DNA of 11,686 nt from a virus (IMGVR_UViG_3300047564_003701:1-11686); one strand, 5' to 3'; positions 28-3,201 are shown, numbered from the stretch's first letter. The notes: generated by a model from the sequence alone, not told the origin. Made by a program: numbers and translations.

Positions 28-101
28 TGGTAGGGGCACAGAGAATCGAACTCTGATTTACGGGTTAAAAGCCCGCTACTTTACCATTAAGTTATACCCC
101 C
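28..101 (-). tRNA. trnK: tRNA-Lys(UUU)
   Basis: Cloverleaf GGGGGUA/UGCCCCU acceptor (G1-U72), anticodon loop CU-UUU-AA, T loop UUCGAUU, encoded CCA. Confidence 0.95.
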
Positions 102-139
102 AAAGGTTTAGGACCTTTGTCAGATTTGTCACTTTCCAT
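92..139 (-). CDS. putative 15-aa mini-ORF MESDKSDKGPKPLGV overlapping the 5' end of tRNA-Lys
   Basis: Strong SD AGGAGA 5 nt before ATG (139); stop TAA at 94-92 lies inside the tRNA-Lys gene. Too short for homology support. Confidence 0.35.
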   Translation of the reverse strand: MESDKSDKGPKPLGV

Positions 140-233
140 AACATTCTCCTATTTTAAATTTTTGTCAATATAATAAATTAAAACTACAAGCATGAGTAAA
201 ACTGCAACCGCCCCATTTTGATTTCTCCTTAAG

Positions 234-307
234 TGGTGCCCAGAACAAGAATTGAACTTGTAATAATCGCTTATCAAGCGACCGTTATACCATTTAACTA
301 TCCGGGC
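234..307 (-). tRNA. trnI: tRNA-Ile(GAU)
   Basis: Acceptor GCCCGGA/UCUGGGC, A73, anticodon loop UU-GAU-AA, T arm ACAAG-UUCAAUU-CUUGU, CCA. Confidence 0.95.
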
Positions 308-383
308 ATATTGAATTTGTTAAAGTAGTGCCGCCATCGTTATCGACACCATTCACCTGGATTAACTAGCCCGGGCAGGACTC

Positions 384-493
384 GGTAAGTCACTTGGGAT
401 ACTCATCCAGTTAGCAACCATACTGCACCGATCTTCCGATCGGTCGGGAGTTGAACCCGTCCCCTTCTACTATTTCGGTAGTTCGAACTTACC
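384..493 (-). ncRNA. YrlA-like bacterial/phage Y RNA candidate (circularly permuted tRNA mimic), 110 nt
   Basis: Terminal helix 5'GGUAAGUUCGAA / 3' strand AGUGACUUACC with bulged C9; internal T arm (459-445), GGAA-closed acceptor-like hairpin (444-427), D arm with GG loop (425-408). Manual folding only. Confidence 0.7.
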
Positions 494-534
494 TAGATAG
501 CGTGACATTCTCTTGCTGACACTTTAACAAAACT

Positions 535-624
535 TGGTGGAAGCGGTGAGATTCGAACTCACGGACCCTTTCGAGCCGTCTGTTTTCAAGACAGGTGCAA
601 TAAACCGGACTCTGCCACACTTCC
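535..624 (-). tRNA. trnS: tRNA-Ser(UGA)
   Basis: Acceptor GGAAGUG/CGCUUCC, anticodon loop CU-UGA-AA, long variable arm, T loop UUCGAAU, CCA; discriminator A. Confidence 0.95.
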
Positions 625-632
625 TTAATCTT

Positions 633-713
633 TGGTGCCCCTAATCGGATTCGAACCGATAGTTATGACACTCCTTTTGAGAGAGCCGCCTTTACCTATT
701 TGGCCATAGGGGC
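633..713 (-). tRNA. trnL: tRNA-Leu(CAA)
   Basis: Acceptor GCCCCUA/UAGGGGC, A73, anticodon loop CU-CAA-AA, 9-nt variable region, CCA. Confidence 0.9.
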
Positions 714-717
714 AATC

Positions 718-795
718 TGGAGTGAGGAGTCGGATTCGAACCGACGGCTTTACAGTTTTGCAGACTGTTGCATTGGGCCTCTCTGCCATCCTCAC
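718..795 (-). tRNA. trnC: tRNA-Cys(GCA)
   Basis: Acceptor GUGAGGA/UCCUCAC, U73 (Cys identity), anticodon loop CU-GCA-AA, CCA. Confidence 0.95.
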
Positions 796-801
796 ATCAT
801 T

Positions 802-876
802 TGGCGTACCCCGAGGGATTCGAACCCCCACTAGCAGTTTTGGAGACTGTCGTGCTGCCGTTAACACTAGGGATAC
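802..876 (-). tRNA. trnW: tRNA-Trp(CCA)
   Basis: Acceptor GUAUCCC/GGGGUAC, G73, anticodon loop CU-CCA-AA, CCA end. Confidence 0.95.
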
Positions 877-882
877 ATTTAT

Positions 883-974
883 TGGTGCCTCCGGCGGGAG
901 TCGAACCCACATTGGCCAATTATCTGTTGCACACGGGATATAAATCCGCTGTTTTACCATTAAACTACAGAGGC
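883..974 (-). tRNA. trnI: tRNA-Ile(UAU) with long variable region
   Basis: Acceptor GCCUCUG/CGGAGGC, A73, anticodon loop UU-UAU-AU, 22-nt variable region, T arm GUGGG-UUCGACU-CCCGC, CCA. Confidence 0.85.
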
Positions 975-982
975 ATAAAATC

Positions 983-1057
983 TGGTACACCGTAGGGGAA
1001 TCGAACCCCTCTTTCCGCCTTGAAAGGGCAGCGTCCTAACCGATAGACGAACGGTGC
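983..1057 (-). tRNA. trnE: tRNA-Glu(UUC)
   Basis: Acceptor GCACCGU/ACGGUGU, anticodon loop CU-UUC-AA, T arm AGGGG-UUCGAUU-CCCCU, CCA. Confidence 0.95.
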
Positions 1058-1062
1058 ATATC

Positions 1063-1139
1063 TGGCTCCCCGAGCAGGGCTCGAACCTGCGACACCTTGA
1101 TTAACAGTCAAGTGCTTCTACCAACTGAGCTATCAGGGA
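1063..1139 (-). tRNA. trnN: tRNA-Asn(GUU)
   Basis: Acceptor UCCCUGA/UCGGGGA, G73, anticodon loop CU-GUU-AA, CCA; one extra A in the D arm. Confidence 0.95.
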
Positions 1140-1147
1140 ATAAACTT

Positions 1148-1222
1148 TGGCGGTCCCAGGGGGTAACGATCCCCCTCCTTCGGCGTGACAAGCCGGTATG
1201 CGTCCATGAACACCTTGAGACC
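1148..1222 (-). tRNA. trnD: tRNA-Asp(GUC), atypical T loop
   Basis: Acceptor GGUCUCA/UGGGACC, G73, anticodon loop UU-GUC-AC, T arm GGGGG-AUCGUUA-CCCCC, CCA. Confidence 0.9.
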
Positions 1223-1227
1223 TAAAT

Positions 1228-1430
1228 TCGTGTAAGGCTACTTGTTTTCCACTCAAACCCCTTACTGAGCTGTTACTCTGTCCATCTCCATTTATTCGCT
1301 GTCTGTGTGCAGTTGAGCTTCTGCCTATCAGAGTCTGTAAGGGTAGTTTCCATCCTCACGCTTACGGTTTTCTGCCACCGGATCTCTCACGCTAATCAAA
1401 CGCTACTTTAAGGAAAGTAGTAACCGGAAC
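1228..1430 (-). ncRNA. unidentified ~200-nt structured RNA between tRNA-Tyr and tRNA-Asp
   Basis: No credible ORF; several helices: CUACUUU/AAAGUAG, CGGU/ACCG, and nested GUAAG/CUUAC, CCCUUAC/GUAAGGG, ACUCUG/CAGAGU, GCAG/CUGC. Confidence 0.6.
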
Positions 1431-1519
1431 TGGTGGAAGTGGTAGGATTCGAACCTACAATGTTTCTTATGTGGCGGATTTACAGTCCGTTGCCTTCAAC
1501 CAATTCAGCACACACTTCC
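1431..1519 (-). tRNA. trnY: tRNA-Tyr(GUA)
   Basis: G1-C72, A73, anticodon loop CU-GUA-AA, long variable region, T loop UUCGAAU, CCA. Confidence 0.93.
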
Positions 1520-1528
1520 ATTTAAGCA

Positions 1529-1556
1529 ATTATACACTCTTCCGCTATGCTGTCAA
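1529..1556 (-). promoter_or_regulatory. sigma70-type promoter directly upstream of tRNA-Tyr
   Basis: TTGACA (1556-1551), 16-nt spacer, TATAAT (1534-1529); the predicted start lies just upstream of tRNA-Tyr position 1 (1519). Confidence 0.75.
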
Positions 1557-1757: not shown

Positions 1758-1931
1758 TTAGTCTTCGTAGACAGGACTCTTTTTTTGAGCTTCGTACAAT
1801 GCACGAGCTCTTTCAAACTTATCTTGAATAAGTTTGCGTGTCTGTTCATCACTTAAAGTATAAGCAGACACGTAAGCCTGTTCAACAACTTTTCTCTTTA
1901 ACACATTTTTATCTATTTCTTTTCTTTCCAT
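1758..1931 (-). CDS. 57-aa hypothetical protein (MERKEIDKNVLKRKVVEQAY...KKSPVYED), first ORF after the attenuator
   Basis: SD AAGGA 4 nt before ATG; open frame of 57 codons; below the ORF-track length cut-off. Confidence 0.6.
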   Translation of the reverse strand: MERKEIDKNVLKRKVVEQAYVSAYTLSDEQTRKLIQDKFERARALYEAQKKSPVYED

Positions 1932-1945
1932 CTTTTCCTTTACAT

Positions 1946-1978
1946 AAACAAAAACCCCAGGGTTTCTAGTCCTGGGGT
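1946..1978 (-). terminator. intrinsic terminator of the putative attenuator
   Basis: ACCCCAGG-9 nt loop-CCUGGGGU followed by UUUUGUUU; the 5' arm can alternatively pair with GGGGUCC at 2028-2022. Confidence 0.8.
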
Positions 1979-2003
1979 CCTTTGAAGTTCGAGTTATTTT
2001 TAG

Positions 2004-2144
2004 TTAACTCATGATCTCCGTGGACCCCGACTGTAGCTCTGGTGTACGATCATTATTAAAGAGACTAATCGCAGACCAAGAGGCGGATATACCAACCTGT
2101 TTGGCTATACAATAATGTCTTAATGATGATCCTACTGTTTTCAT
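2004..2144 (-). CDS. putative 46-aa attenuator leader peptide MKTVGSSLRHYCIAKQVGISASWSAISLFNNDRTPELQSGSTEIMS
   Basis: First ORF after the promoter at 2196-2224; AAGGA at 2162-2158 (13-nt spacing, long); stop sits within the antiterminator hairpin, 25 nt before the terminator stem. Confidence 0.65.
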   Translation of the reverse strand: MKTVGSSLRHYCIAKQVGISASWSAISLFNNDRTPELQSGSTEIMS

Positions 2145-2195
2145 TTGCTTCGTCTTTTCCTTAAAAATTCTGCGTTTTCTCTAACGCATAGTCCT

Positions 2196-2224
2196 ATTGT
2201 ATAGTTATTTAGTCTCGCTGTCAA
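2196..2224 (-). promoter_or_regulatory. sigma70 promoter of the leader/tRNA operon
   Basis: TTGACA (2224-2219), 17-nt spacer containing CTAAATA, TACAAT (2201-2196). Confidence 0.75.
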
Positions 2225-2291: not shown

Positions 2292-2320
2292 ATTGTATTG
2301 TCTGTTTATTTATATGTCAA
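2292..2320 (-). promoter_or_regulatory. sigma70 promoter with embedded T4-late-like TATAAATA
   Basis: TTGACA (2320-2315), 17-nt spacer beginning TATAAATA (2314-2307), TACAAT (2297-2292). Confidence 0.7.
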
Positions 2321-2600: not shown

Positions 2601-3161
2601 TTATGTCAAATGATCTGCCACGCCCAGCTCGACACATTCTTCTGCAGTGAGATATACATCAGATGCGGGCAACAATTTTGATTTGATTCTACTAGGCGGC
2701 ATTCCTGTGGCCTGTTTGAGGATATCGATCATTCGCTGATTACAGAGTTCGCCGTCTCTCATAGTGGCCTTTAGATCGTGATGTTTTCCCGATACACTGT
2801 CAGAATATTGATGACACATAAAACTACAATTTTTTGCAGCATATCTCTCGCCATTATGTCCTGCGGCAAATATAAGGAACGCGGCACTCATAGCAGATCC
2901 TATAGCGATCGTTCTTACCGGATGTTGGCTATTTTTGATCATATCAATCAGAGCAAACGCACCGTAAAGATCTCCGCCCATAGAATTGATATACAGGGTT
3001 AGGATCTTTTCTTTCGGATCTTGATTTTCGTAGAGTATCCATTTGACGCAGTTTGCGATATTTTCTTCATCGATTTCTCCGTAGAGATAAAAGATGCTGT
3101 TTTCTAGAAGTTTTACCGCAATACGATCATCGGCGTTGAAATCGTCGAATTTTTTGGACAC
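2601..3161 (-). CDS. clpP: ATP-dependent Clp protease proteolytic subunit (ClpP-like, peptidase S14)
   Basis: Motifs LYINSMGG, GSAMSAA (catalytic Ser), FMCHQ (His), SDVYLTAEEC...GVADH (Asp). GTG start at 3161 after AGGGGA; ATG 3194 is an alternative start. Confidence 0.9.
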   Translation of the reverse strand: MSKKFDDFNADDRIAVKLLENSIFYLYGEIDEENIANCVKWILYENQDPKEKILTLYINSMGGDLYGAFALIDMIKNSQHPVRTIAIGSAMSAAFLIFAAGHNGERYAAKNCSFMCHQYSDSVSGKHHDLKATMRDGELCNQRMIDILKQATGMPPSRIKSKLLPASDVYLTAEECVELGVADHLT

Positions 3162-3201
3162 ATTAATTCCCCTGGATTCACTATTACTTATCATTTGTTT
3201 T

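Follow-up and report, generated by a model that had tools for sequence, protein, structure and literature searches.

A putative ribosome-mediated attenuator with an all-20-amino-acid leader at the head of a phage tRNA array

The stretch of DNA analyzed here (the window, 11,686 nucleotides) covers the initial 11.7 kb of a viral contig from IMG/VR, 75.7 kb long and rated 21% complete. The source is an uncultured lake phage. Every feature of the switch and of the tRNA array lies on the minus strand, as an earlier note on this stretch had placed them. In minus-strand order the region opens with the end of a 95-aa ORF, followed by two near-consensus sigma-70 promoters. From there the features are:

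2292..2320, minus strand: tandem promoter further upstream, TTGACA-17-TACAAT, 11/12 matches
2196..2224, minus strand: leader promoter, TTGACA-17-TACAAT, 11/12 matches, transcription start near 2189
2171..2188, minus strand: hairpin at the 5′ end of the transcript, from sequence and folding
2154..2162, minus strand: purine-rich Shine-Dalgarno-like stretch AAGGAAAAG, poorly spaced to the ATG, read from the sequence
2004..2144, minus strand: leader ORF of 46 codons plus TAA (2006-2004), ATG at 2144
2044..2135, minus strand: Domain I, a long irregular hairpin over leader codons 4-34, from folding
2040..2078, minus strand: alternative local hairpin UGGUCUGCGAUUA / UAAUGAUCGUACACCA, from sequence and RNAalifold
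2022..2028, minus strand: element A, GGGGUCC, 5′ strand of the antiterminator, leader codons 39-41, from sequence and folding
1984..2019, minus strand: inner antiterminator, P2 GGAG/CUUC, UC/GA, P3 GAGUUA/UAACUC, from folding
1971..1980, minus strand: element B, GGACCCCAGG, common to both helices; 1980-1974 pair with A and 1978-1971 pair with C
1946..1961, minus strand: element C, CCUGGGGU (1961-1954), which supplies the 3′ terminator arm, and the U-tract tail UUUUUGUUU, from sequence
1758..1931, minus strand: gene for a 57-aa protein (57 codons) of unknown function, first behind the switch, with a good Shine-Dalgarno site
1529..1556, minus strand: extra perfect promoter, TTGACA-16-TATAAT, 12/12 matches, 9 nt before tRNA-Tyr
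28..1519, minus strand: tRNA array, 11 tRNAs visible, truncated by the contig end, the presumed regulated cargo

The leader of the window encodes 20/20 amino acids, with C, W, H, Y, F, P and D each present once. It contains ATA twice as well as AGA, CTA and TTA, uses 34 distinct codons and covers 25/25 decoding families, a count that separates both boxes of Leu, Ser, Arg and Gly, and ATA from ATY. Element A (GGGGTCC, 2028-2022) is complementary to GGACCCC at 1980-1974. The inner pairs are formed by GGAG 2019-2016 with CTTC 1987-1984 and by GAGTTA 2010-2005 with TAACTC 1996-1991. The terminator (1978-1954) consists of ACCCCAGG (1978-1971), a 9-nt loop and CCTGGGGT (1961-1954), followed by T5GT3. 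Its 8-bp stem is G+C-rich, and the hairpin alone is worth -14.2 kcal/mol. A simple terminator scanner missed it solely through a loop limit of 8.

The earlier note had claimed the promoter, the 46-codon leader, the terminator, the complementarity of A and B and a list of base pairs, and all of these held. So did its description of the leader as containing all 20 amino acids, seven single residues, two AUA codons and AGA, CUA and UUA. The hairpin it gave as 11 of 12 bp at 2078-2040 exists, with 12/13 pairs including two G-U. The 57-codon gene at 1931-1758 and the 12/12 promoter at 1556-1529 were not mentioned there.

Relatives of the element were collected in several searches. A search with the 57-aa protein gave five syntenic loci, all of which share the leader and A, B and C and differ in the sequence of the inner hairpins. 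A terminator pattern found >119 viral contigs, from which 88 distinct full-length members were taken (the 88 homologues below). This pattern fixed B and C, so part of the B/C invariance in that set was imposed; a second search with Domain I as anchor remedied this and added further members with variant A, B and C. In all, viral contigs supplied ∼110 distinct homologues. A profile of 36 leader peptides was then compared with 1.84 billion proteins and gave 169 cluster representatives at ≤50% identity, 115 of which were usable. The median pairwise identity of the leaders is 33%, which makes this a deeply diverged family.

Searches of public collections gave little. GenBank phage records contained no DNA match and no meaningful peptide match, and no cultured phage there has the element. 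Rfam at permissive thresholds returned only tRNAs and sub-threshold noise. Neither the leader nor the 57-aa protein had a significant match in Pfam or PHROGs, and an ESM Atlas search with the 57-aa protein gave no match.

A same-strand tRNA array lies 215-1200 nt behind the switch in 79/79 loci with enough sequence, and the arrays of relatives hold up to 27 tRNAs within 3.5 kb. Homologues of the 57-aa protein begin 47-51 nt past B in about two thirds of the loci; the gene is missing in one third. A consensus promoter between the switch and the tRNAs was found in 26/79 loci, the window included, and in 53/79 there is none. We infer from sequence alone that the promoter at 1556-1529 can drive the tRNAs of the window independently, and how much of their expression depends on the switch is likewise a matter of inference.

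At the upstream end, TTGACA-17-TAnAAT stands immediately 5′ of the leader in 88/88 homologues. The second upstream promoter is also present in homologous loci L003, L005 and L006. Homologues with a long UTR have the 5′ hairpin, in differing pairing registers, and keep AAGGAAA or AAAGAGAAA as the Shine-Dalgarno-like stretch. The hairpin is missing from 30/88 homologues, which are leaderless or near-leaderless, with a -10 box 6-10 nt before the ATG. These 30 members point to use of the ATG, since the arrangement otherwise makes no sense. A leaderless mini-ORF, ATG-NNN-TAG, at the transcript start was also considered and was dropped, as only 13 homologues have one.

The leader ATG is invariant among homologues, and leader length ranges from 41 to 55 codons across the family. 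Frame 0 contains no in-frame stop in the 88 homologues, compared with 298 and 364 in the other two frames; counted as lineage-specific stops, the other frames have 112 and 106. The distance from the ATG to a GATCG motif is divisible by 3 in 87/88 members, in nine length classes, so indels are in frame. Both anchors came from a frame-blind nucleotide alignment. This comparison shows that selection holds the leader ORF open, and translation in vivo is inferred from it. Some caution is needed, because the Shine-Dalgarno-like stretch is either badly spaced or missing, and because a stable hairpin takes up most of the ORF; both leave the efficiency of translation uncertain.

The constraint on the leader is not that of an ordinary protein. 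Entropy by codon position is 1.18, 1.12 and 1.16 bits, so third positions are no freer than first or second positions. In the adjacent 57-aa gene of the same loci, the values are 1.26, 1.10 and 1.51 bits, and a conserved residue uses up to six synonymous codons. Conserved leader residues are each tied to one codon (GAT 81/81, ACA 72/72, AAT 53/53). As variability is equal over the codon positions, the constraint is on leader nucleotides and not on the protein. The conserved peptide motifs YWSAI and NDRTPE overlap RNA helix arms. Purifying selection on amino acids should give an excess of third-position change and residues fixed in place, and the leader shows neither. A non-coding small RNA should lack any reading-frame constraint, and this is not met either; frame 0 is open in all members. 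We also considered the peptide (IAKQVG...NDRTPE) as a truncated helix-turn-helix. We dropped this idea because what is conserved is the nucleotide sequence, in the places where arms of RNA helices lie.

Completeness of the amino acid set recurs across the family. All 20 amino acids are present in 78/88 leaders of the first contig-homologue set (the remainder have 18-19), in 21/24 leaders of the independent anchor-derived set and in 81/115 representatives at ≤50% identity; 109/115 of the latter have at least 19. The chance of finding all 20 in a 46-residue stretch is 1.5-2.8%, and independent, identically distributed draws from the representatives' own pooled composition would give ∼5 complete leaders in 115. 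Overall, 70-89% of leaders are complete where 1.5-3% are expected by chance. Completeness is not absolute, since Cys is absent from 12/115 representatives.

The rare residues are kept while their positions change. Among the 88 contig homologues, Cys is never absent. A single Cys is present in 70/88, and the residue occupies 31 column configurations; a single His is present in 74/88, with 19 configurations. Column shuffling leaves 16±3.4 complete leaders, compared with the 78 observed. Since Cys and His change position freely, the leader is incompatible with a folded functional peptide. Selection therefore acts on having one of everything, which suits a sensor and not a folded peptide. Single Cys and His codons that relocate under a rule of "keep at least one" are an unusually clean case of selection on composition, not sequence.

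The same holds for codons. All 25 decoding families are present in 45/88 leaders and 24 families in another 24 leaders, compared with 0.06% and 0.4% of random phage-gene windows. Leaders use 35.3 distinct codons, and random windows use 28.0±2.8. The zone of ∼36 codons in which a stall would leave A free is complete in 42/88 leaders, against 0.3% by chance. Glu and Val are frequently found only in the final codons, where a stall should favor termination. These comparisons show selection for completeness in amino acids and codons, and in our reading it maintains the leader as a sample of all 20 amino acids and almost all isoacceptor families.

Behind these codons lie two mutually exclusive helices that have a covarying base in common, with the stop codon inside the antiterminator. 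This arrangement is shown by the sequence together with its comparison. Unconstrained folding of the window picks the long A:B hairpin (-31.3 kcal/mol, z -2.98; whole RNA z -4.07), and A:B is also picked in 82/88 homologues. An antiterminator clearly stronger than the terminator, which the earlier note had implied, was not found: the two states are near-isoenergetic, with a mean difference of 0.7 kcal/mol over the 88 homologues. The folding model thus predicts a balanced switch that would be decided kinetically, without a dominant antiterminator, and naked RNA may terminate appreciably.

RNAalifold on whole-RNA MAFFT or gapless alignments found only the terminator or nothing, as indels misregister the helices. 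We therefore used a covariance-model alignment for A, B and C and per-sequence folding for P3. Over 97 members of the covariance-model alignment, A:B is paired at 98.5%, with 4/7 pairs changed on both sides, and B:C at 99.7%, with 4/8 pairs changed on both sides. For both helices, 0/500 shuffles reached the observed values, and slid controls were far lower.

As the seventh base of B, most members have C and the remainder U, and wobble intermediates occur. This base forms GC 69, AU 16 and GU 1 with its partner in A, and CG 75, UA 12 and UG 5 with its partner in C. The U form is found in at least six leader subfamilies. One natural triple variant of A, B and C reads AGGGUCC / GGACCCU / CCUAGGGU. 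Another A:B pair, outside the terminator, changes from C-G to U-A in L141 and L143.

The apical hairpin P3 is formed by 37 distinct complementary arm pairs among the 88 homologues, and in 71/88 the leader stop codon lies inside its 5′ arm or loop. The stop is 15-18 nt past A and 22-26 nt ahead of B. GGGGUCC itself is kept at the nucleotide level though its frame differs among homologues (GS, GVQ or GP).

Three comparative checks had been named beforehand in the earlier note, and all were positive: leader length is conserved with the frame open, amino-acid completeness recurs in all three sets, and the terminator base that belongs to both helices covaries with both partners. Its reading of an "any-codon" translation-stress sensor is supported by comparison to this extent, while the direction and the trigger of the switch remain inference.

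One alternative takes the unit for an ordinary small gene, or for a small RNA with two functions, in which GGGGUCC only extends the 3′ structure and regulates nothing. A strong promoter, an ORF and a terminator do make a self-contained unit, phage tRNA regions are rich in small ORFs, and the window has a separate tRNA promoter. Against this, the leader lacks the amino-acid-level selection signature that the neighboring gene has, and its residues wander in position. An element that competes with the unit's own terminator is conserved and covaries with that terminator, and the stop codon is placed within the competing hairpin in 71/88 homologues. Most relatives, moreover, have no other promoter ahead of the tRNAs. 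We consider this alternative very unlikely.

Further structure is found within the leader. In 74/88 homologues the predicted fold of the ORF region is more stable than the folds of shuffled sequences (mean z -3.4). In Domain I, 77% of cells pair on an unfitted alignment, compared with 31-49% in slid controls, and the apical helix reaches 85%. This pairing support is only moderate and comes from an alignment of 22 sequences. The local hairpin at 2078-2040 is made of the two most conserved stretches of the leader. Its arms are almost invariant, so covariation gives no test, and the sole synonymous variation in the helix, CGT/CGC, exchanges G-U and G-C. It is a possible pause hairpin; roles in pausing or timing for this hairpin and for Domain I are inferred.

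These conserved structures raise a second alternative, in which the A:B/B:C switch is real but is set by a trans-acting factor that acts on Domain I or on the local hairpin. Candidates for the factor are proteins, among them the 57-aa product, and RNAs, among them tRNAs. The ORF would then be translated only in a secondary role, perhaps to deliver or remove the factor. In favor of this, nucleotide conservation goes beyond pairing, both in the Domain I loops and bulges and in the two arms of 2078-2040, a conserved small protein is encoded downstream in about two thirds of the loci, and with balanced thermodynamics a small input could tip the switch. However, such a factor leaves unexplained the open frame and the in-frame indels, the Cys and His codons that are relocated yet kept, and the maximal codon diversity. 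The 57-aa gene is missing from one third of the loci, and there is no match to the T-box or to another Rfam family. The dual constraint of pairing and codon set accounts for the nucleotide conservation without a ligand. For these reasons we regard control by a trans-acting factor as unlikely.

A T-box riboswitch was considered separately and was rejected. There was no match to Rfam RF00230 up to E 10, and the internal loops of the antiterminator are without the UGGN motif. A T-box-like reading of UGGU/ACCA is unsupported.

Our preferred reading is that the element, which heads the phage tRNA array, is a ribosome-mediated attenuator and senses shortage of any aminoacyl-tRNA. We consider this likely, with a probability of roughly 0.68, in the absence of RNA or experimental data. 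The locus has several of the parts by which attenuators are recognized: an intrinsic terminator before the genes, an antiterminator that uses the 5′ arm of the terminator, and an ORF so placed that the position of a ribosome on it would select the helix. A match of regulatory codons to the product is also present, in the form of completeness ahead of tRNA arrays and not as a run of a single codon.

In the proposed mechanism, host RNA polymerase would start at the strong sigma-70-type promoter and a ribosome would translate the 46-codon leader. When decoding is smooth, the ribosome would pass A and stop at the TAA within P3. There it would keep A:B melted while the polymerase makes C. B would then pair with C, the terminator would form, and transcription would end at ∼1950. 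With a stall at any one hungry codon among about the first 35, or with no ribosome loaded, A:B would form first. This would pre-empt the terminator, and transcription would continue through the 57-aa gene and on into the tRNAs. The outcome would be negative feedback on aminoacyl-tRNA supply.

The direction of this switch, from stall to read-through, rests on geometry and analogy and is inferred. With a ribosome on the stop codon, A is just beyond the standard footprint, and occlusion of A:B would have to work via sterics, not by direct covering. A footprint model cannot settle the outcome for a ribosome at this position. The natural trigger is inferred as well and may be starvation, host shut-off or anticodon nucleases.

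The same anatomy is compatible with a third alternative, an attenuator that reports overall translation capacity and not the supply of individual tRNAs. Its signals would be ribosome availability, ribosome-polymerase coupling, host shut-off or translation inhibitors. The parts are identical to those of the main explanation, and read-through is also expected where the leader is not translated. Besides starvation, many translation inhibitors elicit a response from the whiB7 uORF (PMC10274678). The pyrBI attenuator is known to sense coupling. However, a capacity sensor requires no set composition, yet 20 amino acids and ∼25 decoding families are kept at a median identity of 33%. We judge it unlikely for this reason.

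The attenuator reading, with sensing of individual aminoacyl-tRNAs, can be compared with known systems. Like the trpL, hisL, pheL, leuL, thrL and ilv leaders of enterobacteria, the phage element has a promoter-proximal short ORF and a terminator whose 5′ arm can alternatively pair with a segment in or near the end of the ORF. In the enterobacterial attenuators the position of the ribosome picks the helix; read-through follows a stall and termination follows complete translation, and the same is proposed here. In those leaders one to three regulatory amino acids are repeated in runs, and the genes under control encode the enzymes that make these amino acids. In contrast, the phage leader has each amino acid about once and precedes tRNA genes. 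Its stop codon lies inside the antiterminator hairpin, whereas in classical leaders the stop is just before region 2. Also unlike in classical leaders, no separate 1:2 anti-antiterminator that overlaps A was found, and an untranslated phage leader is therefore predicted to read through and not to superattenuate.

The best functional analogue of an "any-codon" sensor is the whiB7 (wblC) uORF of mycobacteria and other Actinobacteria. In this uORF a single Trp codon is enough for Trp sensing (Poulton et al. 2023, PMC10274678). Loss of its start codon gives constitutive read-through, and read-through is induced by shortage of many amino acids, tRNAs or synthetases (PMC10274678). The content of the uORF varies; it is Ala-enriched, lacks several amino acids in M. 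tuberculosis and lacks Cys in M. smegmatis (PMC10274678). Like the phage leader, it is a long uORF of mixed composition tied to a terminator/antiterminator pair. The sequences are unrelated, and the cargo is a bacterial drug-resistance transcription factor, whereas that of the phage is a viral tRNA array. Unlike in whiB7, completeness itself is under selection in the phage leader.

T-box riboswitches likewise make a terminator/antiterminator decision that reports tRNA charging. They work without translation, by direct binding of one uncharged tRNA at a specifier codon and at the T-box bulge, and control synthetase and amino-acid genes in Firmicutes; the phage element instead has a selected ORF. 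The pyrBI and pyrE leaders of E. coli contain an ORF of similar length (∼44 codons), and the distance between ribosome and polymerase decides termination. There, a close ribosome prevents the terminator and the signal is UTP-dependent polymerase pausing. In contrast, a ribosome at the end of the phage leader is predicted to promote termination, and the signal would be decoding.

Leader-peptide attenuation is a textbook mechanism for amino-acid-making genes, and with whiB7 it also covers a stress regulator. To our knowledge there is no known case among tRNA genes, nor a described leader under selection for the complete amino-acid alphabet. In the literature that we searched, no account of phage tRNA genes controlled by a leader peptide turned up. 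If the reading is correct, large phages would set their tRNA arrays by demand, with a ribosome making the measurement directly. This would give a simple account of how phages deploy tRNAs against codon mismatch, host shut-off and tRNA-targeting defenses.

A bolder reading is possible but more tentative, in which the element is the sensor of an inducible counter-defense and homeostasis circuit that surveys the whole tRNA pool. In such a circuit, loss of any one host tRNA species would stall the leader ribosome, and the stall would turn on a near-complete phage tRNA set, a small protein and non-coding RNAs. The loss might come from starvation, phage-induced host shut-off, anticodon nucleases or other tRNA-cleaving defenses.

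The leader element is ∼240 nt long and self-contained, and its signals are a standard sigma-70 promoter and an intrinsic terminator. Because it is small and uses standard signals, the hypothesis is directly testable in E. coli or in a cell-free system. A further possible use of the element is as a compact, general-purpose reporter for shortage of aminoacyl-tRNAs.

Elsewhere in the window, one 596-aa protein has a distant link (37% identity) to the Melnitz and HTVC008M myophages.

We compared codon use in the family's leader ORFs with that in the long genes of the phages. The leaders are enriched in codons that are rare in the long genes: GGG (2.5% in leaders versus 0.5%), TCC (1.9% versus 0.3%), GCG (2.0% versus 0.4%) and GAG (3.5% versus 1.1%). 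Common codons are shunned, and GAA and GTT each make up only 0.4% of leader codons, versus 5.0% and 2.4%, respectively, in the long genes. The preference for rare codons could heighten the sensitivity of the leader to tRNA shortage. Alternatively, it may be a mere by-product of G+C-rich stems. The codon ATA occurs twice in the leader of the window and is present in 72 of the 88 distinct full-length leaders. The array includes two tRNA-Ile genes:

883-974, (-) strand: tRNA-Ile with anticodon UAU, 92 nt, with a long extra arm (predicted by ARAGORN)
234-307: normal tRNA-Ile(GAU)

The start of the leader mRNA differs between lineages. In 30 of the 88 relatives (L004, L056, L072, L064, L008 and about 25 others), the 5' hairpin and the purine-rich stretch are absent, and 6-10 nt separate the -10 box from the leader ATG downstream. 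The leader mRNA there would therefore be leaderless or carry a UTR of 3-4 nt. Judging from promoter positions, UTR length would thus depend on lineage, with 40-60 nt in others. The window also has a one-codon mini-ORF at or adjoining the predicted start of the transcript from the promoter at 2224:

2186-2194, (-) strand: ATG-CGT-TAG

ATG-NNN-TAG is found at the matching place in 13 homologues with a long UTR and is absent from the remainder.

Several homologous loci carry altered forms of the leader or switch. In L144 (7871-7922, (+) strand), a deletion joins the region preceding element A straight to the 3' arm of the terminator; the inner antiterminator helices P2 and P3 and element B are gone. 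L134 has the conserved AATGATCGTACACCAGAG motif, with no A/B/C switch after it. In the leader ORFs of L134, L136 and L145, no start codon could be identified. These four loci may represent natural decay of the leader or switch. The 5' part of the L129 leader is nearly identical to that of L107-type members (compared with L107 and L079), and its switch is the variant form AGGUCC / GGACCCU / CCUAGGGU. This combination suggests modular exchange, and the ORF hairpin and the terminator possibly move as separate modules.

Two features follow the terminator:

1758-1931, (-) strand: gene for a 57-aa protein, directly downstream of the terminator, with a strong ribosome-binding site
1529-1556, (-) strand: perfect (12/12) sigma-70 promoter, ending 9 nt upstream of the mature 5' end of tRNA-Tyr

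Homologues of the 57-aa protein (50-62 aa, motif EQAY..LT.EQ..KLIQDKFERAR) hold the same position in about two-thirds of related loci and show a normal pattern of protein evolution. The protein has no match in protein families, the Atlas or phage records, and its function is unknown. From its position behind the switch, we infer that the gene would share regulation with the tRNAs. A minority of relatives likewise have a promoter 7-21 nt upstream of the first tRNA; in some lineages, therefore, the array appears to be uncoupled in part from the switch.

Two proteins provide the only links to cultured phages seen for the window:

2601-3194, (-) strand: ClpP-type head maturation protease, 197 aa
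9874-11664, (-) strand: 596-aa protein, 37% identical to Melnitz and HTVC008M proteins

The matches of the 596-aa protein come from Melnitz, a Methylophilales phage, and HTVC008M, a Pelagibacter phage, and are annotated as adenylate/guanylate cyclase.
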